Below, piece by piece: positions 39,940-59,843 of a stretch of 64,000 bases of DNA. Under the pieces are notes generated by a model that made no database searches, was not told the DNA's origin, and worked only from the letters and a program-made list of their open reading frames with translations. The stretch is from assembly GCA_965218945.1 (NCBI GenBank), contig OZ244718.1, positions 3,005,700 through 3,069,699 on the forward strand, written 5' to 3'. This DNA is from Dehalococcoidia bacterium. GTDB lineage: Bacteria > Chloroflexota > Dehalococcoidia > Lucifugimonadales > UBA2985. Numbering within the stretch: the stretch's first letter is position 1; every line of letters begins with the position of its first letter. The position numbers were made by a program, and so were the translations under genes.

Positions 39940-40023
39940 CCGCGTCTCCTTGTGAAGTAGTGTTTTCGTCATCAGCGCCCCGGCCAGCCTCCGTACACGT
40001 ACGCAGACCATGCCGGAGTCATG

Positions 40024-40974: not shown

Positions 40975-41076
40975 ATCGGTCTCCCGCGAGCTGCGCAATA
41001 CCGTGGTGCTCGACTGCTTCCTGTTGGGCGTTGTCCGGTTCCTTGTCTTGCCTCCGCAAGAGCAGTATGCGGCTCT

Positions 41077-42972: not shown

Positions 42973-43002
42973 TTGACAGTACCAACTCCGGTACTCCAAT
43001 AT
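42973..43002 (+). promoter_or_regulatory. divergent promoter region with palindromic candidate operator
   Basis: TTGACA (42973-42978), an 18-nt spacer, then CAATAT (42997-43002). The spacer is the perfect palindrome AGTACC-N6-GGTACT (42978-42995). On the opposite strand, TATATT lies just upstream of the same palindrome. Confidence 0.45.
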
Positions 43003-43077
43003 ACAGGGTATGAGCCGGTCGGCTCCCTTGTCAAGCCTTCAGTGGCACATTGTACCGTTTACCGCACAGGAGGCGAG

Positions 43078-44283: not shown

Positions 44284-45162
44284 CTATGCGCCGCCTGGAC
44301 TAACCAGCTGCGCCACCTGAGGCCGCAGATCGCTGATCACAGTCTGGAATATAGGCAAGTCCGGCATGAGCGGGCCGAGCGACTGCTCCCAAGTCTCTTC
44401 GACGAAAGCAAGCATGCGGTCATGGAAGAATTTGTCCGGTCCTGCGAAGAAGACACCCCGGACGGCGCACTTCTCACGCAGCAGCGAGTCGAAGCCTGCC
44501 AGGTTCATTTGGTCTCTGTAGGCGTCAAGCACCCGCCAGAGGTCGTAGTAGTCGCGGGCGCGTGAGCGGCTCCAACCTCTCCGCTCGAACATTTCCGCTT
44601 GTTGCAGGAGCGCTCGCAGCTTTTCGGCAACAATCTCTTCGAGGGAATACACCTTCACTTCTGCGTTGAGCGGCTCGCCGTACTCGTGGATGACCTGCCG
44701 CAGCTCGGCAGGCAGCAGGACTCTCTCATCCATCGTTACCTCGACCATGACACGGGTCTGCAGGCGGCTGTGCCACGGAAACCTCGCTCGGATGGCGAAT
44801 GCTTCCTGACCGCCTGGATGGAGTTCCCTCTCCGTGTAACGCTCACAAGTGATCTCCACAGGAGCGTATTCGTCCAGAAGTCGCACGGCGGTTCCGCACA
44901 CTTCCCTTATCAACCCCTCTATCTCGTTGCCAGTCGGAATCCCTTTCAGCGTTGAGAAGTCCAAGTCCTCAGAGAAGCGGTAGTCACCGAAGTAGCACTT
45001 TCGGAGGGCTGTGCCTCCCTTGAAGACCAGTGTGTCGCGGAGCACGGGCGTCCGGCTAACGCCAGCCAAGATCCAGGACAGCAGGTAGTCGCGTTCAAGA
45101 GCCTCCCAGGGGATGCCGAGGCGTCGGCGTGCTTCCTGTAGGCGCGTGCGGAGTGGTCTCAT
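44284..45162 (-). CDS. abiEii: AbiEii/AbiGii-family nucleotidyltransferase toxin (type IV TA)
   Basis: LVFKGGTALRKCYFGDYRFSEDLDFS signature of DUF1814/AbiEii. Confidence 0.8.
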   Translation of the reverse strand: MRPLRTRLQEARRRLGIPWEALERDYLLSWILAGVSRTPVLRDTLVFKGGTALRKCYFGDYRFSEDLDFSTLKGIPTGNEIEGLIREVCGTAVRLLDEYAPVEITCERYTERELHPGGQEAFAIRARFPWHSRLQTRVMVEVTMDERVLLPAELRQVIHEYGEPLNAEVKVYSLEEIVAEKLRALLQQAEMFERRGWSRSRARDYYDLWRVLDAYRDQMNLAGFDSLLREKCAVRGVFFAGPDKFFHDRMLAFVEETWEQSLGPLMPDLPIFQTVISDLRPQVAQLVSPGGA

Positions 45163-45998
45163 GCCTCAACCATCCTTGGCAGGTTTTCCTGCACCATCCA
45201 ACGGCCATTGCATGGCCCCTTGCGAGGCCCAGTAGAATCAAGCTTGCGGTAGCCCTTGATCGGCAGCGCCGCCAGCTCCTCCAACTCGAACGGGAGAACC
45301 CCTTGGGCTTCGAGCGCCCACCCCAAGCGCTTGGCTGTGGTCACGCCCAGCCTGATGGCGTACTCTGTGATGCGTTCGATGTTCAGTCGAGCCATCGCGA
45401 CTTGGAAGGCGTAGAGCACCTCCCCGAACCCCCCACAGTGCTGGGGCATGGAGAGGCAGTCCAGCAACGTGCGCTCCAAGTCAGACATGGGCACACGGGC
45501 TTCGCCGACCCACAGGTTCTCACTTCCGAAGAAGCGGTCGGGCTTGACCTGGATGAACCGGTACGTTGTATCCCCGACGACGAAGCCGCCTCCGGCCCTC
45601 TCCTTCCCTTCCTTCCTCGGACGTGGAACCCAGGCATCCGTCGTCGTGAGGACGAAAACATCCCTCGGTATCTGCTCCGTCAACCCATGATGGTGCAGGG
45701 CCGACCAGTGGGAAATCATGGCTGGGTCCACCAAGGCCGTGGCTATCTCGAATTCGTGGGCGTCCGCAACCCCAGGGACCGTGGGAGAGAGCGCATAGAG
45801 TCCTCGCCGGAGGGGGACGATCCAGTCGTTCTTACGGAGGTGGTACAGCGCTTCGGTGAGGTAGGAGTCCTTCAGACCTACACGCGGCGCGAGCTCCCTG
45901 GCCCGCTCCGTCGTGAAGATGCGGTCTCCCTCATAGGCGAGCAGCCGGACCAGTTCGATGCCGACCAGAGATTGCTTGGGCTTTGTGCTAACCGTCAT
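45159..45998 (-). CDS. abiEi: AbiEi-family antitoxin/transcriptional regulator
   Basis: N-terminal wHTH. 4-nt overlap with abiEii. Start set at MTVSTKP (45998). Confidence 0.7.
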   Translation of the reverse strand: MTVSTKPKQSLVGIELVRLLAYEGDRIFTTERARELAPRVGLKDSYLTEALYHLRKNDWIVPLRRGLYALSPTVPGVADAHEFEIATALVDPAMISHWSALHHHGLTEQIPRDVFVLTTTDAWVPRPRKEGKERAGGGFVVGDTTYRFIQVKPDRFFGSENLWVGEARVPMSDLERTLLDCLSMPQHCGGFGEVLYAFQVAMARLNIERITEYAIRLGVTTAKRLGWALEAQGVLPFELEELAALPIKGYRKLDSTGPRKGPCNGRWMVQENLPRMVEA

Positions 45999-46039
45999 TG
46001 TACGTATCCCAGGGTTACATCTGGGTGAGAAGCAACTGC

Positions 46040-46068
46040 TTGCAAATTTACAGCGAAACTTGGATAAT
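46040..46068 (+). promoter_or_regulatory. sigma70-type promoter for the methyltransferase cluster
   Basis: TTGCAA, a 17-nt spacer, then GATAAT, 45 nt upstream of the ATG at 46113 (RBS GAGGGAGAG). Confidence 0.5.
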
Positions 46069-46112
46069 GTCAAAGATGCTGTGTTCCTGAGCTAACTATT
46101 GAGGGAGAGTCG

Positions 46113-49100
46113 ATGACCTCACCTACCGCCAATCAGACATCCGCATACCTCGAAGCCACATTCGGCCTTGGGCGCGACTGGACGTCGCAGGCAGGGCAGT
46201 CTGCAACGGTCTGGGAGACGCCTGCTTACCATCTTCTGTGGTTCAATGATGCAGCGAGCGATGTGGAACTACGGAGACTGTGGGAGGCACGGAAAGGCCG
46301 TCAAGCCTATCCGGTTGTCTTGCTGGCCCCATCAGACGACGCAAACAAACTGCGGGTAGCTGGGCCGCAGGATGCCCGGCCCATTCGGGAGTTGCCAGTC
46401 AGCCGAGTCCTCGACCTATTGGAGACGAGCCGCAGTCTGGCGGCCCGTGAAGCGGCATCGTTCCTGGCCAGGGAGTTCAGCCGTCTTGAGGAGGCAGTGG
46501 TTCCCGGGCTGCGGGTCAAGGACCTCCTCACCCCTCATTTCATGCGGGAGCGCCTGCGCCGGCCCATCAACGAGCAGCGATTGTCCGGCGCCGTCGATGG
46601 TATCGCTTCTATCGGCAGCATTGCATGGCGCTCACTGTTCCAAGGCATGGGCTACCAGGTGGAGCAGCTTCCCCAGCGCGGTTACTTGCTGAGGCACGAC
46701 AATGCGCCGGTTGCTGTGGTGCATCCTCACCGGGACGCCTCCCAGTTCAGCAGCCTCACGGACAACGGAGAACTGCCCGAGGGAATGGTGCTGGCGGACT
46801 GCGGGCAGCACGGGGCGCATTGGGGCATCCTGGCGGCGGAGGGCCGCTACCGGCTATTTCAGCGACGGCCTCCGGTAGGACCGGCGACGGGTCAGCACGT
46901 GGAGTTAGACCTAAGAGAGTTGGAGCGGAGCGACCGCTTCTATCTGGGTCTACTTGCCCCAGAGTCATTGAAGGAAAAGGGATGGCTGACCGATTGGGTC
47001 GGTGAGGCGAAGGACTTTGGTGAAGAGCTGCGGAAGGGGCTCGAGGAGCGGCTCATCAAGGACGCGCTGCCCAACATTGCGCGTGGGCTGGGTGAGTATC
47101 TTGAATCGCAGGGCGCAGATATGCGTGACCGGGAGCAACTCCGGCAGATAGAGGAGGCGGCGCTGACGCTGGTATTCCGGTTCATGTTCCTGTTGCACAC
47201 CGAGGCTCGCGGTTATCTCCCCATCGGCTCGGCGGCCTACCGGCCCCACAGCGCACGCCAGCTTGCCGAGGACTCCCGGCTGGCGCTGTCGTCGCTCAGC
47301 CGGAGGGCTACCCAGCGGTGGGACCGACTTCGGACACTGGTACGGATGGTGCGCACCGGAGATCGCTCGGCCGGAGTGCCCGCCTACAACGGCAGCCTCT
47401 TCGCTGCCGATGGCTTCCCTGGCAGCGCATTGCTGGAACGGGCCGAAATCGCCGACGTCCACCTCGCTCCTGCACTCGCGGCGATCGCCTACGAGACGGA
47501 CAAACCCGACGCTCCTGGACTGGATTACGCCGGCCTGCAAATCGGCCACCTGGGCGCCATCTATGAGGCCCTTCTCACCCTGAGGCTCACCCGCGCCCCC
47601 GAAGACCTGGCCTACGATTCCAGGCAGGATATGTTCCGCCCCGTCCGCGCCGGGGAGCAGCCGGAGGTGACCAGGGCTCAGCTCTACTACCAAGCCGAGA
47701 CGGGCGGACGAAAGGCCGGAGGCGTGTTCTACACGCGGCATGAGTTCGTGGATCACCTACTCAACCATTCGCTGCTGCCCGCCCTCGACGACCATCTGGC
47801 CGAGGTCAAGAAGGTCGCCCAGCAGGACTCCACCGAGGCGACGCGGCGGCTGTTCGACTTCTCGGTAGTGGACCCGGCGATGGGCAGCGCCCACTTCCTT
47901 ACGGCGGCCTTGGACATGATTGCTGACCGCATCGAGATCTTCCTCGCCGAAGTCGGCGGCCTGCCCGGTATTGCCCAGCTACTGAAGGAGTTGAGCCAGG
48001 ACAATGGGACGGTCTCTCAGCAGCCGGAGGACGGCGACCTGCTGCGGCGGCTCATACTCAAACGCTGCATCTACGGCGTAGACCTCTCCCCGATGGCGGT
48101 GGAGGTCGCTAACGTCACGCTCTGGCTGGCGTCCTTCGTTCCCGGCTTGGCCCTCTCCTATCTGGGCAGCAACCTCAAGTGCGGCGATGCCCTCATCGGC
48201 GTGGCCGATCCGTCCGTGGTCGGCGCCAGCGACAGCCCTCTCTTCACAGGCCAGACCGTGCGGAACGCCATGGACCACGCCGCCGCGCTCCAGCGGGAGC
48301 AGGCCGCTATCCCTGACCGGACGCCGGAAGAGGTCAAGCAGTCAGAGGAATTGGGAACCCGTCGGGAGGAAGCCACCGCAGGTCTGAGAGCGGCCTTCGA
48401 CCTGTGGGCGGCGGAACCACTTGGATTGACCGTCGAAAACAAGTTCATCGCGAAGAACGGAGATCTCCAAGAGCGTGTTGGTTCCCGTCATATACTGGAG
48501 AACAACGCGGCCGCTATTGTAGAGCGGCGTGAGACCCCAGATGTATCCGAAGTTGTAGCCAATGCCTCCGCCATCGCCGCCCAGTACCGCTTCTTCCACT
48601 GGCCCCTGGAGTTCCCCAACGTCTTCCACAGGGAGCATCCTGGCTTCGACGTGGTGGTCGGCAATCCACCGTGGAACGAGATAACCGTCGAGGAACTCGC
48701 CTTCTATGCGCTGCGCGAGCCTGGACTGCGGGGATGGTCGAATCTGGCTGACAGAAGAAGGCGCATCGCCGAGCTTGATGTGGAGAATCCTGGCTGGCGG
48801 GGGGAGCTTGAGGTACAGCAGGAACAAATGGCGACACTGCGGCAGTTCTTCTGGAAGAGCGGAGAGTATCACCTTTGGAGCGTGGGCGACCGGGACCTGT
48901 ACCAGCTCTTTTGCGAACGCTATGACCATTTAATCCGCCAGGAAGGGCGATTAGGTGTGGTGCTTCCTAGGAATGCATTCTTGGCGGAAGGGGCCAAACG
49001 ATTCAGACAGTGGCTCTTTACTCGCAACAGCCTGCGGCGTCTCGACCTCCTGCTAAATAACCGAAGTTGGGCGTTCACTATTCATCCGCAATATACGATT

Positions 49101-50138
49101 GCGCTGTTGACTGGCCAACGCCACACTCCAACCGGTCAGGCCGCCTTTCAAGTCACCGGTCCGTCAGCGAGCCTTGACGAGTTTCAGGCATCCGCTCAAG
49201 GCGATGGTATTACCATCCCTACGTCCTCCCTGGGTAGTGCCTATGTAGTGCCTCTCATGCCAAGCCAAGTGCACGCCGACGTGCTCGCCAAGCTGCGGCG
49301 CGGCATCCAGTTTGACGCTCTTCAAAATCCCGAAAGTCAAGAAATTTCAAGAGGGCGCGCTGCTGCGTCTCATGCAATTCCGTATAGGGAGCTAGATGAG
49401 ACGCAGCAGCGCGCCCTCTTCTCACATTCCCAAGGCGTTCCCGTATGGAAGGGTCGTTCGTTCAATCAGTACGCACCACATGGCAGTGAGCCAGCCGGAT
49501 ACGCCAAGTGGGATGAGGTCTTTTCCTTCGCACAGCAGAAGCGGATGCGATCTCCCGTCTTTAAGCGGATTTTTTCCAAAGAGGTCCTAGCCGATCCCAA
49601 GACCCATCCGATGAACCACTGCCGCATTGCCTTCCGAGACGTTACACGAAGCACTGACTCCCGCACCGTAAGAGCCTGCTTAGTGCCACCGCGAGTGCCT
49701 TTGACGAACAGCGCACCATACTTGGTGTTTGCGGGGTGGCTGCCACTATCTCAAGCGAGTTTACTTGGCGTACTGAACAGCACACCTTTTGACTGGCTGG
49801 CTCGCAGATATGTCGAGATTCATCTCAATTTCTATGTTCTCAACAGCCTTACCTTTCCTCCACCGGCCAACACTCCCTGGCAGCGCATCGGTAGGTTGGC
49901 TGCCCGATTGTCCTGCACGGACGAGCGGTTCGCTGAATTCGCTGCTGAGGTAGGGGTGGAGTGCGGGGTGTTGACCGAGGCTCGGCACAACGACATGCGG
50001 GCAGAGATAGATGCCCTCGTCGCACGCGCTTACGGTTTGACCGAGGACGAGTTGCGCTTCATCTTCACCGACTTCACGGAGAACGCGGTCAGCCCCGCCT
50101 ACCGGCGGCAGGTTCTGGAGAAGCTCGAGGGCCTGTAG
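46113..50138 (+). CDS. large (1341 aa) gamma-class N6-adenine DNA methyltransferase, Eco57I/PglX/type IIG-like
   Basis: Motif I VVDPAMGSAHFL, YGVDLSPMAVEVANVTLWL and motif IV VVVGNPPW. About 550-aa N-terminal region of unknown function. About 470-aa C-terminal TRD-like region (LNSTPFDWLARRYV..HLNFYVLNSL.FPPP). Confidence 0.8.
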   Translation: MTSPTANQTSAYLEATFGLGRDWTSQAGQSATVWETPAYHLLWFNDAASDVELRRLWEARKGRQAYPVVLLAPSDDANKLRVAGPQDARPIRELPVSRVLDLLETSRSLAAREAASFLAREFSRLEEAVVPGLRVKDLLTPHFMRERLRRPINEQRLSGAVDGIASIGSIAWRSLFQGMGYQVEQLPQRGYLLRHDNAPVAVVHPHRDASQFSSLTDNGELPEGMVLADCGQHGAHWGILAAEGRYRLFQRRPPVGPATGQHVELDLRELERSDRFYLGLLAPESLKEKGWLTDWVGEAKDFGEELRKGLEERLIKDALPNIARGLGEYLESQGADMRDREQLRQIEEAALTLVFRFMFLLHTEARGYLPIGSAAYRPHSARQLAEDSRLALSSLSRRATQRWDRLRTLVRMVRTGDRSAGVPAYNGSLFAADGFPGSALLERAEIADVHLAPALAAIAYETDKPDAPGLDYAGLQIGHLGAIYEALLTLRLTRAPEDLAYDSRQDMFRPVRAGEQPEVTRAQLYYQAETGGRKAGGVFYTRHEFVDHLLNHSLLPALDDHLAEVKKVAQQDSTEATRRLFDFSVVDPAMGSAHFLTAALDMIADRIEIFLAEVGGLPGIAQLLKELSQDNGTVSQQPEDGDLLRRLILKRCIYGVDLSPMAVEVANVTLWLASFVPGLALSYLGSNLKCGDALIGVADPSVVGASDSPLFTGQTVRNAMDHAAALQREQAAIPDRTPEEVKQSEELGTRREEATAGLRAAFDLWAAEPLGLTVENKFIAKNGDLQERVGSRHILENNAAAIVERRETPDVSEVVANASAIAAQYRFFHWPLEFPNVFHREHPGFDVVVGNPPWNEITVEELAFYALREPGLRGWSNLADRRRRIAELDVENPGWRGELEVQQEQMATLRQFFWKSGEYHLWSVGDRDLYQLFCERYDHLIRQEGRLGVVLPRNAFLAEGAKRFRQWLFTRNSLRRLDLLLNNRSWAFTIHPQYTIALLTGQRHTPTGQAAFQVTGPSASLDEFQASAQGDGITIPTSSLGSAYVVPLMPSQVHADVLAKLRRGIQFDALQNPESQEISRGRAAASHAIPYRELDETQQRALFSHSQGVPVWKGRSFNQYAPHGSEPAGYAKWDEVFSFAQQKRMRSPVFKRIFSKEVLADPKTHPMNHCRIAFRDVTRSTDSRTVRACLVPPRVPLTNSAPYLVFAGWLPLSQASLLGVLNSTPFDWLARRYVEIHLNFYVLNSLTFPPPANTPWQRIGRLAARLSCTDERFAEFAAEVGVECGVLTEARHNDMRAEIDALVARAYGLTEDELRFIFTDFTENAVSPAYRRQVLEKLEGL

Positions 50139-50163
50139 GGTGTAGCCGAGAGGCAAAACGATA

Positions 50164-50904
50164 GTGTTGCTAATGAGCGAGCTTGCAAGGGGAGTTGATC
50201 ACTCCATCGGCAACATACGGAGGAGCGTAAAGGCATACGTCTTCGATGGAGATGACTCGGCATATCGCGTTGTGGCCGTAGAGTTGAGGAAACTGCTTCT
50301 GGATACCAATGCAGCCGCATCATTTGCTCCTAAAGTCAAGAAAGGGAAGAATAAGCGGAGTCTCTTTGAATTGCATTACGGCAGTGGCAAGAACATACTT
50401 GTGCGATCCTTCATACCAGAGCAAGAGGACAAGGAGAGCCCCGAATCCAACGACTATGTCGCGGTTTCGCCAAACATTTACCCGAACCGAACCGACATAC
50501 TCTGGACAGCGACGCATGGCGGCAGGCTAGTTAACCTCATTGCTTGGTTGGATGAACCCTTCGTCCACAACAACAGTGGAGCCGTGATGAAGGTTCGAAC
50601 AGTCTTGCATTACATAGCGGGCAGAGAGGGAGCTCACATCATAAGCTCAAAGGGGAGAGATGAGAGAGAAGACGTCAGGATTGCGTTCTCTGCCAGTCCA
50701 GTCGCAACTGAAGACGTGCCGTCCCTTGAATTCGTCGAGCACTGGGAACAATTCGTCATAGATGCAGGGATGAGATTGCTCGATGCGAGGAGGGCAGCAA
50801 ACGGACATCCTCTAATAGCGCACGGCGTCTCTGTACCAGAGAGGCAGGTCACAACAACGAGACTTGAGAAGATTAGACCGGGTATACGAAAACTGAGGTC
50901 CTGA
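50164..50904 (+). CDS. hypothetical protein (no recognisable motif), embedded in the methyltransferase/helicase cluster
   Basis: 246-aa ORF, co-directional, with 26-nt gaps to both neighbours. Visibly AT-richer than its neighbours. Confidence 0.5.
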   Translation: MLLMSELARGVDHSIGNIRRSVKAYVFDGDDSAYRVVAVELRKLLLDTNAAASFAPKVKKGKNKRSLFELHYGSGKNILVRSFIPEQEDKESPESNDYVAVSPNIYPNRTDILWTATHGGRLVNLIAWLDEPFVHNNSGAVMKVRTVLHYIAGREGAHIISSKGRDEREDVRIAFSASPVATEDVPSLEFVEHWEQFVIDAGMRLLDARRAANGHPLIAHGVSVPERQVTTTRLEKIRPGIRKLRS

Positions 50905-50930
50905 GCAAGCAGCAGGGGGGAGGACTTTAC

Positions 50931-53900
50931 TTGACTCAAGGCTCCTATGAACTGGTGGACAACGTTGACTACGGCAACCACCAGCAAGCCTTGGCGTGGC
51001 TGGCGGAGCACTACGCGGGGCCGCTGAATGTGGCGACAGGTTACGTCGGCCTGGAGGGGCTGGACGCACTGGCCAGGATTGCGGCAGACCGAAGCGCGGG
51101 CGGACGGCTCCTCATCGGAGCCGCGCCGTCGTCAGAGGACTTGATGGGTCCGGTAGGAGAGACGGTAGCTGACCGCTTCGAGCAATCGGTGTTGGCCCTG
51201 CGCCGCCAGCGTGACTTCTCAGCGTTCCCTGCCGCACGGCGAGCCGTCCTTGAGCGGGTGACCCGCTTCTTCGAGTCCGACGATGTTGCGGTGCGGCGGT
51301 ACGTTCGGCGCTTCCTCCACGGCAAAGCCTACATTATCGGTGAGTTGAGCGAATCTGGGTCCCCGGTAGGACCAGGAACATCTCTGGTTAGTTCTGCCAA
51401 CCTTACGCAGGGCGGCCTTGTCGCCAATCTCGAACTGGGCATGGTGCATTACCAGCCCAACGTCGTTGGCATGGCATTGGGCTGGTACCAGCGGCTGTGG
51501 GACGACGCCCAGGACTTTCGCGAGGAACTGTTGGAGCTATTGCGTCCGCCGTCCCTGGAGAGCGATCCCCAGACTGTGTTCCTACGTGCGCTGCTCGAAC
51601 TCTACGAGGGTGAGTTGGACGACGATGTATCTCTCCCTGACCTGCACGCCCTCACCGCTTTCCAGCGGGACGGGTTGGCGCGAGCCAAGCGGATTCTGGA
51701 TCGCTACGGCGGCGTCCTCTACGCCGACGGCGTGGGCATGGGCAAGACGGAGATAGGCATCCAATTCATCAGGGAACACACTCGGGACCTCGGACAGCAC
51801 GTGTTGGTCATATCCCCGGCGCAGCTTCGCGACCGCCTCTGGCAGCAGCGCCTCAGCGAAGCGAACCTGCCAGGAACCGTGGTGTCCTACCAGCAGTTGG
51901 CCCAGGACCGGCAACTGTCCTCCGACGGAGGGCAAAGGGTCCTACCAGTGAACAAGGACGTGTACCGGTTTGTCATCATCGACGAAGCCCACGCGTACCG
52001 CAACGTAGACAACACCTGGTATGCGGCGCTGGACCGGCTTATGGGAGGAACGCCGAAGAAGTTGCTGCTCCTGACCGCGACCCCGGTCAACAACTCCCTA
52101 TGGGACCTGCACAACCTCTTCCTGCTGTTCGGCCGGCACGATGGGGCCTTCAACGCCGAACCACTGCGGATTCCCAGCCTGCGGAAGTTCTTCGCCGAGT
52201 CCGGCGCATCCAAATCCGAGAACCTATCGGAGGCAAAGCTGTTCCCGTTGATAGACGCCCTGACTGTCCGACGGGACCGGGCCTTCATCAAGGAGCGGTA
52301 TCGCAACGAGCGATTCGCCGACGGGACGTTGGTAAAGTTCCCTGTCCCGGAGTTGGAAGAGCGCCGCTATGACCTGGACAGCGCGCACCCCGGCATCGTG
52401 CAGTTCATCTACGACAGACTAGACCCTGAGAAGAGAGACAGCCTGAAGATGACGCGGTACCGACCGTCAGCCTATAGAGTGGACAGGGAAGGCGAGTCGG
52501 CGTCGGAAGAGGCGCTGGCAGGGCTGATGCAATCGCAGCTGCTGAAGCGCTTCGAGTCGTCCTGGTACTCGGCCCTGCAGACGGTGACCAGGATGAGGAA
52601 CGGCAACGACGTGATGCTTCGGGTCATCTCGGAGCGGGGAGTCGTGCCGCCGCCGGACGTGATCAGAGACCTTGTCGGCGATGTAGGCCAAGACGACACT
52701 TTCCTTGCCACCGACATCATCGACGACGCGCTGGCTGGGTCGGAGGGTGGCGTCCCCACCGACATGTTCAACGACCAGTTCTTGGCCGACTTGGAGAATG
52801 ACAGGGACATTCTCGCGGAAATGGCGGAGCTGTTGGCGAGATTGGAGAACGGCACGGACCCCAAGCTGGACGCCCTCCAAGACGTAATGACCGCAACGCC
52901 GTCGAAAAAGGTCGCCGTCTTCACCGCATTCCAGGACACGGCAGCCTACCTAAAGCAGTGCATAGAACGTCAACCGGCCCTGCTGGGGGGTCGCGAATGG
53001 ACTGTGGCCGTCGGCTCAGACACCAGCGCCGACGCCCGCACCAGGGAACTCGAACGATTCTGCCCGGAGTCGGTGACCGGCGAGCAGGGCTTCGTCCCGG
53101 AGGGGGGTGAGGTCGATGTCATCCTTAGCACCGACATCCTTTCCGAGGGGCAGAACTTACAGCAGGCCCAGGCTGTGCTGTCTTTCGACATGCCCTGGAA
53201 TCCGCAGCGAGTGGTGCAGCGCAACGGTCGCATCATCCGCCTGCGCAGCCCCCACGACACAGCCTACCTCTATACCTTGCTTCCCAAGCAGGGCGACCTG
53301 GATCGGCTGCTAAAGTTGGAGGCCAAGCTCCAGTCAAAGATCATGGCGGCGAACGCCTCGGTGGGCATGGAAACCCCGGTACTGGCCGACGTGGAGACGG
53401 AATCCCAGGTGTATGCTGACCTGACCACCTTCGCCGAACGTCTCGCCAGTGGGGACGCCACTCTGCTGGACGAGCGGGAGAGCGGCGGGGAGACCGGCTC
53501 GGCATTCGCCGGCGAGCTCTTCCGCTCATATCTCCGCCGCGCTGCGGAGGAGGGCGAGATTGCCAGGCTCAGGGACCTGCCTTGGGGCATAGGCGCCGCT
53601 TTCGTGCAGCGTTTGCCGACACTGGCCGAACCGGCGGTATTCTTCGCCTGTCGAACGCGCAGAGATGAGCGCTACTGGCGCATCGTGGGGCAATCTGGAG
53701 AGATCCTGCACAGGGAAGACCTGCCGATGTTGCGGCTGATAGACCCGCACGAGCAGCCCGGCTGTCCCCTCCCCGACAGTCTGGACTTGGAGCGTCTGTT
53801 TACCATAGCCGCCGCCGACATGTGCGCGGTGCACAATGCGCTGTTAGACCCAGAAACCCGATTCGCATCCTTGCCCGCCAGCCAGCGTTGGGCGCTGGAC

Positions 53901-54173
53901 GTACTGCGCTCGCCGGATGCCCCCGCCGGGGAGGAGTACGACGAGGCTGACCAGGCCCTCTCAGTCGGCAGGAACAACTTGGTGCGGCGCGAGCTATCGG
54001 AGTTGCGCCGGGAGTACGAAGGAGGGGGTATGAGCGCGACAGATGGCGCTCGGCGCATCGTCGAAGTCGTAGCGCGGTTCGGCCTGCGCCCGGTCGAGGC
54101 CCCGCAGGCCCCCGAACCCATCACCGAGGATGATCTGGGAGTGGTTTGCTATCAGGTGGTGTTGCCGGCGTGA
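50931..54173 (+). CDS. PLD(HKD)-nuclease / SNF2-family helicase fusion
   Basis: HKD motif FLHGKAYIIG ... SLVSSANLTQGG. SNF2 motifs YADGVGMGKTE, FVIIDEAHAYRN and LLLTATPVNNSLWDL. Helicase-C motifs LSTDILSEGQNLQ and VQRNGRIIRLRS. TTG start behind a GGGGGGAGGA RBS. Confidence 0.85.
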   Translation: MTQGSYELVDNVDYGNHQQALAWLAEHYAGPLNVATGYVGLEGLDALARIAADRSAGGRLLIGAAPSSEDLMGPVGETVADRFEQSVLALRRQRDFSAFPAARRAVLERVTRFFESDDVAVRRYVRRFLHGKAYIIGELSESGSPVGPGTSLVSSANLTQGGLVANLELGMVHYQPNVVGMALGWYQRLWDDAQDFREELLELLRPPSLESDPQTVFLRALLELYEGELDDDVSLPDLHALTAFQRDGLARAKRILDRYGGVLYADGVGMGKTEIGIQFIREHTRDLGQHVLVISPAQLRDRLWQQRLSEANLPGTVVSYQQLAQDRQLSSDGGQRVLPVNKDVYRFVIIDEAHAYRNVDNTWYAALDRLMGGTPKKLLLLTATPVNNSLWDLHNLFLLFGRHDGAFNAEPLRIPSLRKFFAESGASKSENLSEAKLFPLIDALTVRRDRAFIKERYRNERFADGTLVKFPVPELEERRYDLDSAHPGIVQFIYDRLDPEKRDSLKMTRYRPSAYRVDREGESASEEALAGLMQSQLLKRFESSWYSALQTVTRMRNGNDVMLRVISERGVVPPPDVIRDLVGDVGQDDTFLATDIIDDALAGSEGGVPTDMFNDQFLADLENDRDILAEMAELLARLENGTDPKLDALQDVMTATPSKKVAVFTAFQDTAAYLKQCIERQPALLGGREWTVAVGSDTSADARTRELERFCPESVTGEQGFVPEGGEVDVILSTDILSEGQNLQQAQAVLSFDMPWNPQRVVQRNGRIIRLRSPHDTAYLYTLLPKQGDLDRLLKLEAKLQSKIMAANASVGMETPVLADVETESQVYADLTTFAERLASGDATLLDERESGGETGSAFAGELFRSYLRRAAEEGEIARLRDLPWGIGAAFVQRLPTLAEPAVFFACRTRRDERYWRIVGQSGEILHREDLPMLRLIDPHEQPGCPLPDSLDLERLFTIAAADMCAVHNALLDPETRFASLPASQRWALDVLRSPDAPAGEEYDEADQALSVGRNNLVRRELSELRREYEGGGMSATDGARRIVEVVARFGLRPVEAPQAPEPITEDDLGVVCYQVVLPA

Positions 54174-54269
54174 CTTATTAGCCACTTGGTTCTCGGGTGG
54201 TGACTATGGTATTGCTGGCCGTAGTGCGCCCCTTGATTCCAATCGTTTCTTAGCCTACTCTGAGGTATT

Positions 54270-55271
54270 ATGGCCAGCAAAGAACCTACCTACACCATTG
54301 ATGCCCAAGGTGTAGCCATAGAGCTACAACCCCGCGCAACAGAGGACATCCGAAAGCTCGTGGGCGGCCTTGTTGAGGCTGCCGATAGGATAGGTTGTCC
54401 GTACAAGCTGCACAGCGTCCTACTGACCAGTCAGTTTCAGGACGATGTGAACCGGCTACTTCGGGAGCGCTCAGGGCTTACGGGGTATGTAGCCGCCCGT
54501 AGTAATGCACATGCCATTGGCAAGACCCTGTGGACTCGTTCCCTCGATGGGGACATCGGTTTTTCGGTGGTCATCGACGCCACTCAGATTGGCTCTTGGA
54601 GCCTCAACAATGCCCGGTGTTTGACCACGGTCTTGCATGAACTAACTCATGTTCTCTACGAGACGCGCCATCTCAAGAGACTGGGCGAGACGGAGTACAC
54701 GGCGGTCGGTGACACGAGGGAACGGCTATTGGACCGTTCGGCTTCGTTGCTCATTGACGAATTTGATGTGGACCGCACAGTTGATGCTTTGGTGAAAGGC
54801 TTAGCGAAAAAGGACGACGGCAGTGCGTGGTCGCTCCGAGAATTGGAGGAGGCTCAGAATGTGGACTGGCCCCGATCATTAGTCAATGGACTTTCAGGAA
54901 TGCCTCAAGTAGTAGATGAAAAGGTCTGGCGATTCCGCACTCGGAGGATGGGCATCGACGACCTTGTTGCTCAATTGATCCCCTTTGTCAACGATCTCCT
55001 AACCCTTCTCAGCCATACAGCCGCCATATACTTGGCAACCGAGGGGTGGCCCGAAATTCTCGGTCGCATTAGGCAGACCGCGGCATATCGGCGCTTTCTC
55101 AGTGAGCACCTAGACACTATTCTCAGCCAACTCGATAGTACGCAGGTGCTATTCCCGACCGCTGTTGAGACGGTGGCCAGTAGCATAGAGGGCATATTCC
55201 GCAATTGCGGTCTGAGTCTTCAGACGGTGGATGAAGGGGTATACATCGGCGTTCAGGCACCGGCGCAGTAG
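54270..55271 (+). CDS. hypothetical protein with HExxH motif (putative zinc metallopeptidase-like)
   Basis: 333 aa. Single HExxH (TTVLHELTHVLYE). No other family recognised. Confidence 0.45.
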   Translation: MASKEPTYTIDAQGVAIELQPRATEDIRKLVGGLVEAADRIGCPYKLHSVLLTSQFQDDVNRLLRERSGLTGYVAARSNAHAIGKTLWTRSLDGDIGFSVVIDATQIGSWSLNNARCLTTVLHELTHVLYETRHLKRLGETEYTAVGDTRERLLDRSASLLIDEFDVDRTVDALVKGLAKKDDGSAWSLRELEEAQNVDWPRSLVNGLSGMPQVVDEKVWRFRTRRMGIDDLVAQLIPFVNDLLTLLSHTAAIYLATEGWPEILGRIRQTAAYRRFLSEHLDTILSQLDSTQVLFPTAVETVASSIEGIFRNCGLSLQTVDEGVYIGVQAPAQ

Positions 55272-55694
55272 CTTCGTCTCTCTATTGCTTTCGTGGCAGG
55301 CTGTCCCAATTCCAAGTATGGCCACGACAAGGGTACCACTCGCTCACCCCACGAGTTTTTCGATACAGGGTGTGACACCTCGAACGCCCTGTCAAAAGCA
55401 AGCCTTGTCGGGGGACAAGCCTAGGTCCAGCCACAGGCCTCCCTTACGCGCCACCGATGAATCGAAGATCAGCGCTGACCTGATATGGTCACCCTGCGCT
55501 CTGCCGTTCCGAAGCACCTCGACTGGTTCTAATCAAGGCTTTCCCCTCGCTCCTACCACAAAACCGCACCCAAAACAAGGGCTTGCAATGCCTTACCTTC
55601 GACGAATTTCCCGTTTAAAATGGGATGTTGGGCTATTGCTGGCAGGAGCAGTCGATTGATCGTCGCGGAGCCAAGAACACAACCATTGAACGGC

Positions 55695-57671
55695 ATGACA
55701 CAGGCCGGACCGGGCCTCGAGATGGCGGTCCGGGACTACGTGCGCGCCTACGCGTGGCTGCATGGACGGAGGAAGACAGCCGAGGACCTCGGCGTGTCCC
55801 GCCACACCTTGTGGCGATTCCTCGAACGGGGCCACGCAGGGCGAGCCGTGCCCTCCGCCGTCCTGAGCTCCGTCGGCGGGAGCGTGCGGGCGATTGAAGC
55901 GGCCACGTACGAGGTCATCATCGACCTGGAGGGCCTGCGGCCGGACCCTGCCCTGCGTTCCCTACGCCAGGGTCTTGAGGAGGCGCTCCTGCTGCTGTGC
56001 GCCACGCCCCTGGCCACCGTGGACGAGTTGTCCCGCTTCGGGCGACTTCCAACCTCCACGCTCCGCGACCGGTTGAAGAAGCTGACCGAGCGGGGCCTCG
56101 TGGACTCCGTGGCGCACCATCTGGGCGTCCTGGGGGCTCGCCCGCAGCGCCGGTACTTCCCCACCGAGAAAGGCGTCACCGTAGCTGGCGCAGCCACGAA
56201 GGGCCGAGCGCACATGCTGCAATCCTACCCGGTGTCCAAGCAGTGGTTCCGGCTGCTGGCCGAGCGGCTGGACGCCGTGGCCGTGCTCCACCGCGTCGCC
56301 GCCATGACCGCCGACGCAGACCCGCACAACGATCCCGTGCGCGTGGACCACCATCGCAACGGCCCCTACGACATGCTGCTCACCCTCTCCGGGGGGCGCA
56401 CCATTGGCCTGATTCGCCAGGGACCGGCGCTGCCCACCTCCAGACTCCGCTACCGCCTCAGGAGCATCGAGCGGCTGGACAGCAGCGACAGCCCCTTCGT
56501 CACCCTGGTGCTGACCCATGCAGACCAGGCCACCCGCAGGGCCATCCGCTCCCTGGGCGACCCGTCGGAGCATCGGAGGACGTTCGTTGCGACGGAAGGG
56601 GAGCTTCTTGCCGGAGACCACACGGGAGTCGTCTGGCAGCAGTGCGGGAGCGGTCTGGGCGAGGCCGTGCGCATCGACGCCGACGCATCCCTGGTGGGTA
56701 TCCTGGCCTTGGCGGAGCGCCTGCTGGACTCCTCCTACTCCTTCCTGGGCAAAAGCCCGAAGCCAAATCCCAGCGACCTCTATCCCTCCGGCGTGCAGGC
56801 CGCCATGCCGGAACCCACTGAGCAGCTCACATCAACCCTCCCTGTGCAGCTGACCCGCGCCGAGAAGGACGCCCTCGACCTGCTGGCCGCCTGGCCCCTG
56901 TGCACCCGTGAGCAGCTGGCGGGACTGATGGGCGGCGTCACCCTGCGCCGGGTGAACCAGGTGCTTCGTTCTCTGACCCAGCACGGCCTAGTGCGAGCGG
57001 ACGAGCCTCTGCACATGCTCACCGATGAGGGGCTGACTTACCTTGCCCGCAGGGACCGGGCCGCCGTGGGGCTGACCCTCGACCGGTGGAGCGCCGAGCC
57101 TCTCTACCTGAACGCCGACATCTACGCCGGGACCGCCGTGCGAGCCCTGGCCTCTCAGATGCGCCACCACGCCGGCGTCATCGACTTCGCCGCCGCCCTG
57201 TCGACCGAGGTCGCCCGCTCCCCGGACCACGACCTGTTCGACCTGCTGCCCACGTCCCGTTCCAGCATCGGCTACCGCTACGACTGGACTACCTACGTCA
57301 TCCATCCCGACGCCTCCTTCACCCTGGAATACAAAGGCCGTTGGCGTCCCTACCTGCTGGAGTTCGAGAGACGGGCCACGACACCGAAGCGCGCCCGTGT
57401 CCGCCTGAAGTCCTATCGACGCTACTTCCAGAGCGGCTGGGCTGAGCGAGACCACGAGGGACGCCTGCCCCGGGTGCTCTTCGTCTTCGAGTCCCCGGAC
57501 AACGAGAATACCTTCCTGGATGTCGCCGACACGGTGGAGGGAGTCCCCATCATCACGTCCAACACAAAGACCCTTGCGAAACGGGGCATCCTGGGCGACG
57601 CATGGATACTTCCGCCCCCGCATTCCCTCGACAGGAGGCCGTTATCCCTGTTGCATCAGGTGCAACAATGA
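55695..57671 (+). CDS. replication-relaxation family protein with two MarR-like wHTH segments
   Basis: wHTH-like LSRFGRLPTSTLRDRLKKLTERGLV and TREQLAGLMGGVTLRRVNQVLRSLTQHGLV. C-terminal IHPDASF...YLLEFERRATT, typical of Replic_Relax proteins. Confidence 0.6.
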   Translation: MTQAGPGLEMAVRDYVRAYAWLHGRRKTAEDLGVSRHTLWRFLERGHAGRAVPSAVLSSVGGSVRAIEAATYEVIIDLEGLRPDPALRSLRQGLEEALLLLCATPLATVDELSRFGRLPTSTLRDRLKKLTERGLVDSVAHHLGVLGARPQRRYFPTEKGVTVAGAATKGRAHMLQSYPVSKQWFRLLAERLDAVAVLHRVAAMTADADPHNDPVRVDHHRNGPYDMLLTLSGGRTIGLIRQGPALPTSRLRYRLRSIERLDSSDSPFVTLVLTHADQATRRAIRSLGDPSEHRRTFVATEGELLAGDHTGVVWQQCGSGLGEAVRIDADASLVGILALAERLLDSSYSFLGKSPKPNPSDLYPSGVQAAMPEPTEQLTSTLPVQLTRAEKDALDLLAAWPLCTREQLAGLMGGVTLRRVNQVLRSLTQHGLVRADEPLHMLTDEGLTYLARRDRAAVGLTLDRWSAEPLYLNADIYAGTAVRALASQMRHHAGVIDFAAALSTEVARSPDHDLFDLLPTSRSSIGYRYDWTTYVIHPDASFTLEYKGRWRPYLLEFERRATTPKRARVRLKSYRRYFQSGWAERDHEGRLPRVLFVFESPDNENTFLDVADTVEGVPIITSNTKTLAKRGILGDAWILPPPHSLDRRPLSLLHQVQQ

Positions 57672-58058
57672 CCGCCCCAGCCGTTCCGACCACTTCCTGT
57701 AGGGGGTGTCCCAGCATGGCTGCTGGGACCATTGTCCTCCCACTTGCAACCGCTCTTGCACCTTCCGCCCTCCCGATTACAAATTGGTGCAGAATTGACA
57801 CGTCAGGGGAGGCCCCGTCCACCACACATTCCTACCGCCTCTCAGCTTTGGCTCGTAGCTACATCCGCCTCACCAACGACCCAACGAACATCTCCTCGAG
57901 GGTCACAGAAGCATGTTGCATTACCGGCGCCAGTCCGTTCCTACGACTTCCTATAGGGGGACAGAGGGGCATTCCTCTACTTACGGTGTTAGCCCCCAAC
58001 AGGTCGAAACGTGACAATTGTTGCAGCGCCCGGCGGGGGGTTGAAGATCGGTTGCCGG

Positions 58059-58088
58059 TTGGCATATAGTAAGACACTGTGCTATAAT
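58059..58088 (+). promoter_or_regulatory. sigma70-type promoter (extended -10) for the RHH gene
   Basis: TTGGCA, an 18-nt spacer, then TGCTATAAT (TGn-extended -10, TATAAT at 58083-58088). Confidence 0.6.
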
Positions 58089-58107
58089 AGCTATGAAGAG
58101 AGAGGCC

Positions 58108-58341
58108 ATGTCCCCAAAGTTATCTAGGAACACCGAGACGATCACCTTCTCCTTGCCGCCGGAATTGGCCCAACATCTGCGGCAGGTGGTCAAGGAGGAG
58201 GAGCGCACGGTGAGCGAGCTGCTCCGGGAGGCGATCCGCCTGTACATGGATGAGAGGGAGTGGCGCAGACGGGAGCGGCTGGAACGGCTGCGCTCCCGCA
58301 CGACTACCGACCAGGAAGAGACAGGGAGGAGGGACCGATGA
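58108..58341 (+). CDS. ribbon-helix-helix (CopG/Arc-like) protein
   Basis: TITFSLPPELAQHLRQVVKEEERTVSELLREAIRLYM gives a beta-strand plus two helices. ATG at 58108 behind a GAGAGAGG RBS. The stop overlaps a relic recombinase ATG (ATGA). Confidence 0.7.
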   Translation: MSPKLSRNTETITFSLPPELAQHLRQVVKEEERTVSELLREAIRLYMDEREWRRRERLERLRSRTTTDQEETGRRDR

Positions 58342-58382
58342 ACGACCGACTCGAATCTAATGCCGACAGTCCTCTACGCCAG
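58338..58382 (+). pseudogene. relic 5' end of a serine recombinase gene (first ~15 codons only)
   Basis: ATGAACGACCGACTCGAATCTAATGCCGACAGTCCTCTACGCCAG aligns with the first 44 nt of the intact recombinase at 59843. Homology stops just before the codons for the catalytic VSS. Confidence 0.6.
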
Positions 58383-58518
58383 ATAGCCTTTAGGTCAGGC
58401 CCAGCGAAGGGAATCGAATTGGACACCGGGATCCAACCTACCGTTTCATTCGCCTTGTCCCCCGTGGCTGGATTGGTCTGGCGAGATCGGCTACAACAAA
58501 GCCGGAGGCCATAGTGAG

Positions 58519-59550
58519 ATGAATGATGCGTTTCTATTAGGAGCAGGCTTTTCTAAAGCAATCTGCAAAACGATGCCGACAATGACAGAATTGTATGCGC
58601 TCTTAGAACCGCTCATCGACGTCGCAGACGGTTTCAGCAGAGATGCCTACGAATACGCATCTGGTAATGTTGAGACTTTACTCTCCTACTACGCGATTCC
58701 AAGCCCGCATGACGACCCGGTCGAGTGCTTGCGAAAGAGGCGAGTAACCACTCTGTTGGAGATTGGGATAGGCGCGCTACTACAAGCTCGCGAACAGGAG
58801 GGAGCCGGATTGGGACTAAATCCAGCTGGAGCCCAGTTGATCCTGAAATGGCACGAGCGAAGAAGCCACGTCTTGACAACGAACTATGACACCCTGGTAG
58901 AGAGAATCGCTTCTGAGACGGTTTTCACAACAAGTGGGGGAAACAGCTACCCCCTCCGTTACGAAGATCTATATCCGATACCCATTAGCCCCGCCTTAAC
59001 CCGAGACGGAGGTATGGTGTTGGGTTCTTCTTATCCGGACACTTTCACTCTTTATAAACTTCACGGTTCAACTGCTTGGTTTAAGTCGCCCACCGAATCA
59101 ATTTTCGACCCGATCTACGGACTATCGCATGAGCAGTTGGGAAATCCTCGTTACCAGAAGTTCATTGCTGACAAGGGCCGCTTCATAGTCCCACCGGTGT
59201 ACGACAAGTCATCGTTGCTGAACCATGAGAGCATCCGCAACCTGTGGCTGCAGGCCAAGAATCAGGCTCTGCAAAAAGCGGACAACCTGTACATAATCGG
59301 CTATTCGCTTCCAGAAACAGACGCAGCTATGCAAATCCTTTTGTGGGAAGGAACACGAACTGGCCAGAATACAAATGGTAGCAAGAAGGCTCTTTACGTC
59401 GTTGATTTGGATGAAGGCGTTGGTCAGCATTACATAGAAAAGCTGGGCAAATACTATGACGTGAACGTTTGTTACGCAGGCAGCCAAAATGCGTTTGATG
59501 ATTTTGTTGGGGAATACGTAAATAAGGGGGGAGATGATCAGGTAAGGTAG
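58519..59550 (+). CDS. SIR2-like (SIR2_2 family) protein
   Basis: N-terminal FLLGAGFS, LTTNYDTLVE and YKLHGS motifs. AT-richer than its surroundings. No partner gene such as TIR or HerA is adjacent. Confidence 0.75.
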   Translation: MNDAFLLGAGFSKAICKTMPTMTELYALLEPLIDVADGFSRDAYEYASGNVETLLSYYAIPSPHDDPVECLRKRRVTTLLEIGIGALLQAREQEGAGLGLNPAGAQLILKWHERRSHVLTTNYDTLVERIASETVFTTSGGNSYPLRYEDLYPIPISPALTRDGGMVLGSSYPDTFTLYKLHGSTAWFKSPTESIFDPIYGLSHEQLGNPRYQKFIADKGRFIVPPVYDKSSLLNHESIRNLWLQAKNQALQKADNLYIIGYSLPETDAAMQILLWEGTRTGQNTNGSKKALYVVDLDEGVGQHYIEKLGKYYDVNVCYAGSQNAFDDFVGEYVNKGGDDQVR

Positions 59551-59669
59551 GCGTTTCCCTACTGATCATTCCGAGGCGTCCCGCGATGATTTCTAGCGGA
59601 TAGGACTTATGCAGCTGGCTATGGGATTTCAATCGATAGAGATGTGTGGCCACCACCGGACGGATATAG

Positions 59670-59843
59670 TCGCTCAGGACATTAACCTTGGCCAACTCCG
59701 ATTTCAACACCGCCCTCAAGTTGCTCCAAGCCCGGGCCATCCGCCTGTTTATGGAGGAACGGGAGTGGCGCAGACGGGAGCGGCTGGAACGGCTGCGCTC
59801 CCGCCCGACTACTGACCAGGATGACACAGGGAGGAGAGACTGA
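59670..59843 (+). pseudogene. N-terminally truncated RHH gene paralogue
   Basis: In-frame translation ...TALKLLQARAIRLFMEEREWRRRERLERLRSRPTTDQDDTGRRD* parallels the C-terminal half of the 58108 RHH protein. It has no start codon or beta-strand region. Confidence 0.55.

Follow-up and report, generated by a model that had tools for sequence, protein, structure and literature searches.

A methylase and PLD-SNF2 gene pair with variable cassette slots in a defence-rich mobile region of a Dehalococcoidia bacterium

Organization of the four-gene cluster

The cluster described here lies at positions 46,040–55,271 of a 64,000-nt stretch of DNA from a Dehalococcoidia bacterium (assembly GCA_965218945.1, contig OZ244718.1, positions 3,005,700–3,069,699 of the forward strand), which is referred to as the window. 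Four co-directional open reading frames (ORFs) on the plus strand, with gaps of 25, 26 and 96 nt between them, encode a predicted 1341-aa DNA methyltransferase (methylase; 46113..50138, ATG start), a 246-aa protein (p246; 50164..50904, GTG start), a 1080-aa protein with predicted PLD-family nuclease and SNF2 ATPase domains (PLD-SNF2; 50931..54173, TTG start) and a 333-aa protein with an HExxH motif (p333; 54270..55271, ATG start). Since the homologues of p246 begin at its Met4, translation of p246 probably starts at the ATG at 50173 rather than at the GTG. The comparisons below indicate that the functional unit is probably a two-gene, ATP-dependent restriction-modification (RM)-like defence module made of the methylase and PLD-SNF2, with p246 and p333 as independent cassettes.

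A first-pass annotation of this DNA had reported the same four ORFs, their motifs and a promoter-like site, and all of these were found again. The promoter-like site (TTGCAA-17-GATAAT, 46040..46068, plus strand) sits in the ~90-nt divergent stretch that separates abiEi from the methylase gene. It had been called a good promoter; the site exists, but it matches the consensus at 9/12 positions and is weak evidence, because the region holds five such sites compared with 2.3 ± 1.4 in shuffled sequences. A better promoter-like site on the minus strand (46073-46045) overlaps it and points toward abiEi.

The methylase

The 1341-aa protein is identified by its sequence as an N6-adenine DNA methyltransferase of the Eco57I/PglX/DrmMI-like (type IIG-like) kind. 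A conserved N-terminal region (residues 1 to ~550) is followed by a catalytic core (~570–860) with DPAMGSAHFL at residue 587 and NPPW at residue 851, and then by a variable C-terminal half that is presumed to be the target-recognition region. A YNGSLF-type helical region precedes motif I. Pfam searches gave a match to Eco57I (1.4e-20) and a weak match to MmeI_Mtase, and the PADLOC models REase_MTase_IIG (PDLC03620, 1.8e-118, residues 45–1324) and DrmMI (2.4e-68) also matched; the PDB sequence search returned no match. The two motifs are present as first annotated, whereas the long termini described as unassigned are so in Pfam only, the type IIG model of PADLOC spanning nearly all of them. Homologues can be aligned along the entire 1341 aa down to 29–32% identity, those of an archaeon and an actinobacterium included, and motifs I and IV are invariant in six aligned homologues.

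In the same six homologues, compared at the sequence level, residues 1 to ~340 showed no invariant D...(D/E)xK set. The first ~340 residues contain no invariant Asp or Lys and a single invariant Glu (E264), and Pfam gave no nuclease-family match in the N-terminal region. Since an invariant nuclease set was not found there, nuclease activity is most simply supplied by the PLD-SNF2 partner.

Comparison with one close relative (L055) showed a mosaic pattern of divergence. Residues 1–750 of the methylase are 92–100% identical and residues 775–1225 are 26–66% identical, despite an identity of 78–98% throughout PLD-SNF2. In another relative (L054), methylase identity dips at residues 700–775. Mosaicism of this kind is as expected for exchanged target-recognition domains and is comparable to that of type I, IIG, ISP and BREX methylases. 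The two halves of the gene also differ in GC content at third codon positions (GC3), which is 0.77 for 46113-48362 and 0.64 for 48363-50138. The composition boundary coincides with the point at which identity to L055 and L056 collapses, suggesting that the C-terminal half was gained by recombination from another source.

The PLD-SNF2 protein

Judged from motifs and profile matches, the 1080-aa protein has an N-terminal nuclease domain of the PLD family with a single HKD motif, then an SNF2 ATPase motor of the RapA/DrmD kind, and last a region conserved at the C terminus (~820–1080). The motifs are HGK (130–132), SSAN (154–157), GMGKT (269–273) and DEAH (351–354), and the Pfam matches are PLDc_2 (residues 98–190), followed by SNF2-rel_dom, Helicase_C and ResIII. 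Motifs and Pfam matches thus bear out the earlier description of a helicase joining one HKD motif to a complete SNF2 motor. HGK...SSAN corresponds to an HxK...SxN half-site, with the canonical Asp absent from its usual place. A single HKD half-site must dimerise into one active site, as in Nuc, BfiI and SauUSI.

PADLOC searches matched PLD-SNF2 to the 'HKD+Snf2' model (PDLC01075, 5.3e-46), to DrmD (2e-24) and, in the Helicase_C part only, to HmaA (3.9e-19). The NCBIfam matches were DISARM_DrmD (3.8e-30, 105 bits against a cutoff of 610) and phospholipD_antiphage (3.2e-27, below cutoff), and the best PDB sequence match was RapA. Across seven homologues, bacterial and archaeal, the nuclease residues H130, G131, K132, S155 and N157 and the motor residues G269, G271, K272, T273, D351, E352, A353, H354, Q763, R764, G766 and R767 are invariant. 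Many residues of the last 260 aa are conserved as well, and searches of residues 821–1080 gave no Pfam or PHROG match and detected no modified-base reader domain. With their catalytic motifs invariant, the nuclease and ATPase of PLD-SNF2, and likewise the methylase, are predicted to be active enzymes.

Conservation of the methylase and PLD-SNF2 pair

Homologues of p246, p333 and PLD-SNF2 were collected, and their genomic surroundings were screened by tblastn with the window proteins. The pair was counted in the 14 other loci with a PLD-SNF2 relative of full or nearly full length for which upstream sequence was available (L020–L025, L052–L058 and L061). In each of these, the gene immediately upstream of PLD-SNF2 encodes a methylase homologue, at identities from 96% down to ~30%. 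The methylase and the helicase are 86% and 96% identical to those of the window in L054, 78% and 92% in L055, 72% and 87% in L056, and 74% and 82% in L020. Identities are 45–59% in L021–L025 and 30–35% in L057, L058 and L061. The pair is also found on the Euzebya pacifica plasmid pEDY32-46I (L052; 33–34% identity, WP_114594567/WP_114594568) and on an archaeal megaplasmid, pHLAC01 of Halorubrum lacusprofundi (L053; 29–32% identity, WP_012660153/WP_012660152). On both plasmids, RefSeq labels the ~1370-aa methylase homologue 'hypothetical protein' and its partner 'helicase-related protein', indicating that the pair has gone unrecognised as a system. In the Euzebya locus, a gene for a phosphorothioated-DNA-binding restriction endonuclease directly follows the pair.

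Nothing lies between the two genes in 9 of the 14 loci. Their ORFs or coding sequences share 4 nt in L022 and L052 and are spaced by 16 nt in L020 and 56 nt in L053, and the tblastn alignments of the pair are 15–24 nt apart in L021, L023 and L025. Such overlaps and distances of a few tens of nucleotides suggest co-translation.

An alternative is that two independent single-gene systems travel together, namely a complete type IIG enzyme with its own N-terminal nuclease and an autonomous PLD-SNF2 of the SauUSI, Hna or PLD-helicase kind. Single-gene SNF2-nuclease and PLD-helicase anti-phage proteins exist, Hna being an example, and both the full-length type IIG match of the methylase and the below-cutoff phospholipD_antiphage match of PLD-SNF2 are consistent with this arrangement. 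However, adjacency, gene order and overlapping stop/start codons are kept from 96% to ~30% identity and in two domains of life. Because defence islands shuffle fast and yet the pair stays adjacent, linked function is favoured over chance neighbourhood. The absence of an invariant nuclease triad from the methylase N terminus in the six sequences and of a detected modified-base reader from the PLD-SNF2 C terminus also argues against two autonomous enzymes, and a modification-dependent nuclease beside an adenine methylase would risk self-attack. We therefore consider this alternative quite improbable and retain the reading of the two proteins as one module.

Variable cassettes between and after the pair

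The position between the pair genes, here termed slot 1, is variable. It holds p246 only in the window and in L054 and is empty in nine loci. L055 (8131-9985) and L056 (8151-10008) have a DUF5131 gene and a TcmP gene there ('three-Cys-motif partner', TIGR04474, 2.4e-54), L024 (6400-7845) a Schlafen/AlbA_2 protein (SLFN_AlbA_2-HATPase_c_4, helix-turn-helix) and L057 a trypsin-like peptidase (Trypsin_2). The DUF5131 and TcmP genes, a pair of little-known function, occur here as a cassette within a restriction-like operon. The Schlafen/AlbA_2 protein with HATPase_c_4, found inside the pair in L024, also occurs in L046 and L047 (3707-5120), inside a type I RM operon beside a p333 homologue, suggesting that it repeatedly travels in restriction operons as a passenger.

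The residues Y34, E40, R42, K43, W128, E155, G156, H158 and W194 of p246 are invariant among its homologues. Its AlphaFold2 model is of good quality (pLDDT 84, pTM 0.85), and Foldseek comparison of the model with the PDB gave no significant match; a similarity to AbiV (E~6) was not accepted as evidence. The best BFVD match, to an uncharacterised Gordonia phage protein (E 0.016), is marginal. Neither p246 nor p333 gave a match in Pfam (even at E <= 10), NCBIfam or PADLOC, PHROG matches were non-significant (E >= 0.1), and profile-based PDB sequence searches returned nothing for either. A profile search of 1.84 billion proteins found 75 cluster representatives of the p246 family, and its remote relatives have no Pfam domain. 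Three relatives of ~430 aa (P0153, P0155 and P0157) have the p246-like domain at the N terminus and TPR repeats at the C terminus. An effector-plus-repeat layout is common in conflict systems. A phage-borne anti-restriction origin of p246 and p333 is unsupported, as neither family is present in IMG/VR.

Homologues of p246, from 74% down to 24% identity, stand alone with neither core gene nearby (L005–L019). The DNA similarity to the closest of these (L015; 78% for DNA, 74% for protein) covers the ORF and ends at its limits, and a search for terminal repeats or target duplications around p246 found only short, chance-level repeats.

In the 333-aa protein, a putative metallopeptidase domain of the zincin-like kind precedes a helical one. 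Its HExxH motif (H123, E124, H127) is invariant in 43 homologues, as are E164 and D172, with D168 nearly so. The AlphaFold2 model (pLDDT 92, pTM 0.90) places HExxH at the start of a helix (115–143) that follows a beta-sheet. Foldseek comparison with the PDB gave weak, non-significant zincin matches (Wss1, DPP3 and M32), and Wss1 (prob 0.25) was not accepted as evidence of fold. In slot 2, the position after PLD-SNF2, p333 occurs in none of the 14 other loci, including L054, in which PLD-SNF2 is 96% identical. The closest relatives have TIR and RNase H genes (L054), a TIR gene (L056) or an insertion sequence and a Shedu-like gene (L055) in this position. In L046 and L047, the p333 homologues have a tRNA-Ala(GGC) gene and a type I RM locus as neighbours. 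They are single genes amid housekeeping genes in L048–L051, and in L001–L004 they adjoin an OLD nuclease as well as ATPases and other helicases.

Base composition separates the cassettes from their surroundings. The backbone, comprising the N-terminal part of the methylase gene, the helicase gene and the Replic_Relax and recombinase genes further downstream, has a GC content of 0.63–0.68 and a GC3 of 0.77–0.89. The corresponding values for p246, p333 and a downstream SIR2 gene are 0.49–0.55 and 0.53–0.60 (GC of 0.51 for p246 beside neighbours of 0.63, 0.55 for p333, and 0.49 for SIR2 within the backbone of 0.63–0.68). The C-terminal half of the methylase gene falls between backbone and cassettes in both GC and GC3. 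Since slot contents vary and cassette GC is lower than that of the backbone, p246 and p333 are regarded, from these comparisons, as passenger cassettes in slots 1 and 2 and not as parts of the conserved pair.

The first-pass annotation had read all four genes as one system in which the two unknown proteins were accessory. The co-occurrence comparison that it had suggested does not bear this out: only the methylase and PLD-SNF2 are kept together (14/14 loci), p246 lies between them in 1/14 (L054) and p333 follows them in 0/14, and homologues of both small proteins occur alone or in unrelated contexts. A single system in which p246 and p333 are obligatory subunits, for instance an MtsB-like co-regulator and a protease regulator, would account for the four co-directional genes with short gaps behind one promoter-like site and for the methylase-p246-helicase order shared with L054, and the related MANTIS system does require a small co-regulator. 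However, slot 1 is empty in 9/14 loci and occupied by unrelated inserts in four, p333 is missing after the pair even in L054, and homologues of p246 (74% identity) and p333 (42–57%) are found in contexts without either core gene. In addition, p246 has no match to DUF3780 or any other family, and the composition of both genes is unlike that of the backbone. The neighbourhoods thus largely refute the four-subunit arrangement, which appears very unlikely.

A narrower functional link is compatible with the two-gene module. In this scheme p246 would be a coupled 'guard' or backup effector, PrrC-like, held inactive by the intact complex and unleashed by a phage anti-restriction protein. It lies between the core genes with 25–26 nt gaps, the same slot elsewhere holds typical suicide effectors (Schlafen/AlbA_2, trypsin-like protease, DUF5131 with TcmP), and some of its relatives are fused to sensor-like TPR repeats. 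There are precedents in PrrC (PMC12707154) and in BREX-embedded effectors (PMC12839542). However, the p246 homologues are mostly alone and far from RM-like genes, indicating that the family is independent of this partner. The fold of p246 is unmatched, and toxicity or enzymatic activity would be hypothetical. Because p246 is almost certainly co-transcribed with the pair, it may still be functionally linked to it, for example as a guard activated upon inhibition of the module; such coupling is a tentative proposal that we regard as rather unlikely.

Defence neighbourhood and mobile backbone

The region around the cluster is mobile and rich in defence genes. The element can be laid out as AbiE, methylase, slot 1, PLD-SNF2, slot 2, Replic_Relax, slot 3 (SIR2 in the window) and serine recombinase, as deduced from comparison with related loci. 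Divergent from the methylase gene, an AbiEii/AbiEi toxin-antitoxin pair (44284..46073, minus strand; Pfam AbiEii 1.8e-40, AbiEi_1/AbiEi_4) occupies the same position in L054–L056 at 88–93% identity and is part of the conserved backbone there. Homologues of abiEi align only from residue 17, and translation of abiEi probably begins further downstream than the annotated TTG at 46073. A 299-aa plus-strand ORF antisense to abiEi (45129-46028) has no family match and is almost certainly a spurious high-GC ORF. Downstream of p333, the mobile-element backbone (55620..61474, plus strand) carries, by Pfam, Replic_Relax (55620-57671), SIR2 (58519-59550) and a large serine recombinase (59843-61474). In L054 and L056, Replic_Relax and the recombinase are again found downstream of the pair, and in L004 and L047 they adjoin p333 homologues; the gene between the two varies. 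L056 alone has a DUF499 gene further downstream, several kb from the pair and past the serine recombinase.

A related element in L047 (recombinase 73% identical) is inserted in the 3' end of a tRNA-Ala(GGC) gene, which is intact in the otherwise identical L046. The insertion lies 137 nt downstream of the p333 homologue and not in it, and p333 was therefore rejected as the attachment site of the serine-recombinase element. The window contains no tRNA or tRNA fragment.

Further upstream on the minus strand lies a CBASS operon with genes for a ThiF/E1-like Cap2 (37376-38923), a SMODS CD-NTase (38926-40011), a patatin effector (40024-40998) and a second ThiF-like protein (41513-42838). It is followed by a divergent pair of helix-turn-helix (42973-43557) and IrrE/M78 peptidase (43529-44089) genes, which we take to resemble the CapH/CapP DNA-damage-responsive regulators. 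At the other end, a second SNF2 helicase of 756 aa (61703-63973, minus strand) is DrmD/BrxHI-like (PADLOC 5e-73; NCBIfam DISARM_DrmD 258 bits) with a weak SWIM-like C terminus. Its 5' end is near the window edge, and it may be part of a DISARM-, ARMADA- or BREX-like system that extends beyond.

Together with the Gabija genes that adjoin the pair in L022 and the GmrSD gene in L020, the neighbours in the window (CBASS and AbiE upstream, SIR2 downstream) indicate that the pair probably has a defence role. The pair could instead serve the mobile element, combining epigenetic marking with a remodelling ATPase-nuclease for transfer, replication or exclusion of competitors. In the closest relatives, it does lie within an element that also carries Replic_Relax and a serine recombinase, and it is found on plasmids. 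However, the more distant loci L020, L022 and L024 lack that backbone and have the pair beside Gabija, GmrSD and other defence genes. The swapped specificity region is the signature of an arms race and not of housekeeping, and the exclusion of competing elements would itself be restriction. A role confined to the element is thus highly improbable, and a defence role for the two-gene module is preferred.

Comparison with known systems

By sequence, the nearest relatives of the pair are those of DISARM class 1 (DrmD and DrmMI), ARMADA (ArmA and ArmB) and BREX type 3 (BrxHII and PglXI), in which a RapA/DrmD-like SNF2 ATPase likewise lies beside a large PglX/DrmMI-like methylase with NPPW. The helicase and methylase pair has been described as a shared module of these three systems (PMC12458937). 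In the window the methylase gene comes first, and the YprA-like helicase (DrmA/ArmC), DrmB/DUF1998, PglZ and BrxC of those systems are absent. Pfam, PADLOC and NCBIfam searches gave no match to PglZ among the 18 proteins scanned (35.5–64 kb) and none to BrxC/PglY or a DUF499 AAA+ ATPase in the cluster or its neighbours. No DUF1998 match was obtained, the DrmA models reach no further than the generic Helicase_C portion of the SNF2 proteins, and there is no third helicase of the ARMADA kind in the cluster. The scans agree with the absence of PglZ/BrxC and DrmA/DrmB reported in the first-pass annotation. PglX models match only the catalytic core of the methylase (PADLOC 9.5e-10; NCBIfam BREX_1_MTaseX 35.6 bits against a cutoff of 500). 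The HKD nuclease and the SNF2 motor form one chain here, whereas DrmC and DrmD of DISARM are separate; the DrmC_I model scores 18 bits on PLD-SNF2 against a cutoff of 133, and the match does not identify a separate DrmC gene. Because the DISARM_DrmD score is far below its cutoff, PLD-SNF2 and the methylase are judged to be relatives of DrmD and DrmMI and not equivalogs.

By effector architecture, the nearest system is MANTIS (Gao_RL or 'Type-2 BREX-related', MtsA-D), which would be the best mechanistic analogue for PLD-SNF2. It likewise combines m6A self-marking with an effector in which an N-terminal single-HKD PLD nuclease is fused to an SF2 ATPase. The effector MtsD is a dimeric PLD-SF2 restriction protein that acts downstream of a hemimethylating methylase, prefers inverted site pairs and is similar to SauUSI, and the defining components of the system are MtsA, a DUF499 AAA+ ATPase, and MtsB, a small DUF3780 protein, both required for methylation (bioRxiv 10.64898/2026.09.23.753747). 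The N-terminal fusion of an HKD nuclease to an SNF2 ATPase with invariant catalytic residues, as in the MANTIS and Hma effectors, is found here. However, the scanned region of the window contains neither the DUF499 ATPase nor the DUF3780 protein, and the methylase is of the Eco57I/PglX type.

An N-terminal PLD nuclease also precedes an SF2 ATPase in SauUSI-type type IV enzymes and in PbeA (PMC10853773). SauUSI acts alone on modified DNA through a C-terminal modified-cytosine reader, whereas no DUF3427- or SRA-like reader was detected in PLD-SNF2. PbeA has a CxC ABC ATPase and DndE as partners, neither of which was detected here.

Type ISP (LlaGI/LlaBIII), type I and type III RM systems follow the same logic, with a specific adenine methylase and target-recognition domain, an ATP-driven SF2 motor and a nuclease. 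Two-site or collision dependence of cleavage is expected. In the pair, the nuclease is PLD/HKD and not PD-(D/E)xK or Mrr, the motor is SNF2/RapA-like and not HsdR/Res-like, and the chains are split into nuclease plus motor and methylase plus target-recognition domain. The methylase resembles type IIG/IIL enzymes (Eco57I, MmeI, BpuSI) and BREX PglX in its Eco57I Pfam match, weak MmeI_Mtase match, PADLOC type IIG match and YNGSLF-type region, and it shares with type IIG enzymes the union of methylase and target-recognition domain in one chain, the latter presumably in the variable C-terminal half. It differs from them in the lack of a conserved nuclease triad in the N-terminal region (six homologues, sequence only) and in being always paired with a separate nuclease-helicase gene. 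The type IIG label of PADLOC fits the methylase and target-recognition part only. In REBASE, PglX-type entries once given as 'type IIG' are now listed as methylases (PMC12707154).

The variable slot occupied by p246 has its best analogues in PrrC of the EcoprrI type I locus and in the BREX-embedded effectors, where an unrelated effector-type gene likewise lies between modification and restriction genes. No sequence or fold similarity was found between p246 and PrrC or any known effector. A named two-gene methylase and HKD-SNF2 system, or the accessions of the plasmid homologues, were not found in the literature, the searchable part of which is incomplete.

Proposed mechanism and implications

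The comparative evidence for the pair fits the earlier proposal of a methylation-based self/non-self system with a translocating PLD nuclease as its restriction arm. With its variable C-terminal half, the methylase would recognise a short DNA sequence, probably an asymmetric one, and it would mark host DNA with N6-methyladenine. At unmodified sites on incoming DNA, it would recruit or license PLD-SNF2, which would move along or remodel DNA by its RapA/DrmD-like SNF2 motor at the expense of ATP. Cutting would occur at a PLD active site formed by two dimerised single-HKD domains, as in BfiI, SauUSI and MtsD. Because such a site forms only on dimerisation, efficient cleavage may need two sites or two converging complexes. 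The proteins p246 and p333 would be independently mobile cargo of the two variable slots and not subunits, and since trypsin-like, Schlafen, TIR and Shedu proteins fill the same slots elsewhere, they are most likely, by analogy, separate single-gene defence or abortive-infection effectors.

Several points weigh against the two-gene module. The case for methylation, restriction and protein interaction is comparative, and it is drawn from a small sample of loci (15 including the window) that is biased toward what pattern scans could detect. The HKD motif of PLD-SNF2 is without its canonical Asp. The methylase is best covered by a PADLOC model named 'type IIG restriction enzyme-methyltransferase', and the N-terminal region of the protein, judged from six aligned sequences, may contain an autonomous nuclease. 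The ~26-nt spacing on either side of p246 makes its co-transcription with the pair almost certain. A bare two-gene system may also be incomplete or dependent on host factors, because the BREX and DISARM relatives need extra ATPases or helicases and MANTIS needs MtsA and MtsB for methylation. With these points taken into account, the module of methylase and PLD-SNF2 remains the reading that we consider probable.

A bolder version holds that the pair is a distinct, minimal and ancient RM class, a 'split type ISP with a PLD nuclease', in bacteria and archaea, with a slot that docks guard effectors, and that p246 and p333 represent new single-gene anti-phage effector families, p246 being triggered upon inhibition of the module. 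This version is speculative and seems doubtful to us. If it were true, two proteins would suffice where BREX, DISARM, ARMADA and MANTIS need four or more.

The pair is best regarded as a minimal methylase and HKD-SNF2 RM-like module common to bacteria and archaea, with variable embedded cassettes, and is not categorically new. Judging from the HMM matches, automated tools would probably call the methylase a type IIG RM enzyme, and its partner is annotated as a generic helicase, leaving the pair invisible as a system. The variable slots inside and after the pair offer a handle for new effector genes, with the p246 family, the p333 HExxH family and DUF5131 with TcmP as candidates. Methylation-based defences beyond classical RM, such as BREX, DISARM, ARMADA and MANTIS, are large and mechanistically murky, and a two-gene relative would offer the simplest tractable case for studying how such methylases license a nuclease that translocates.

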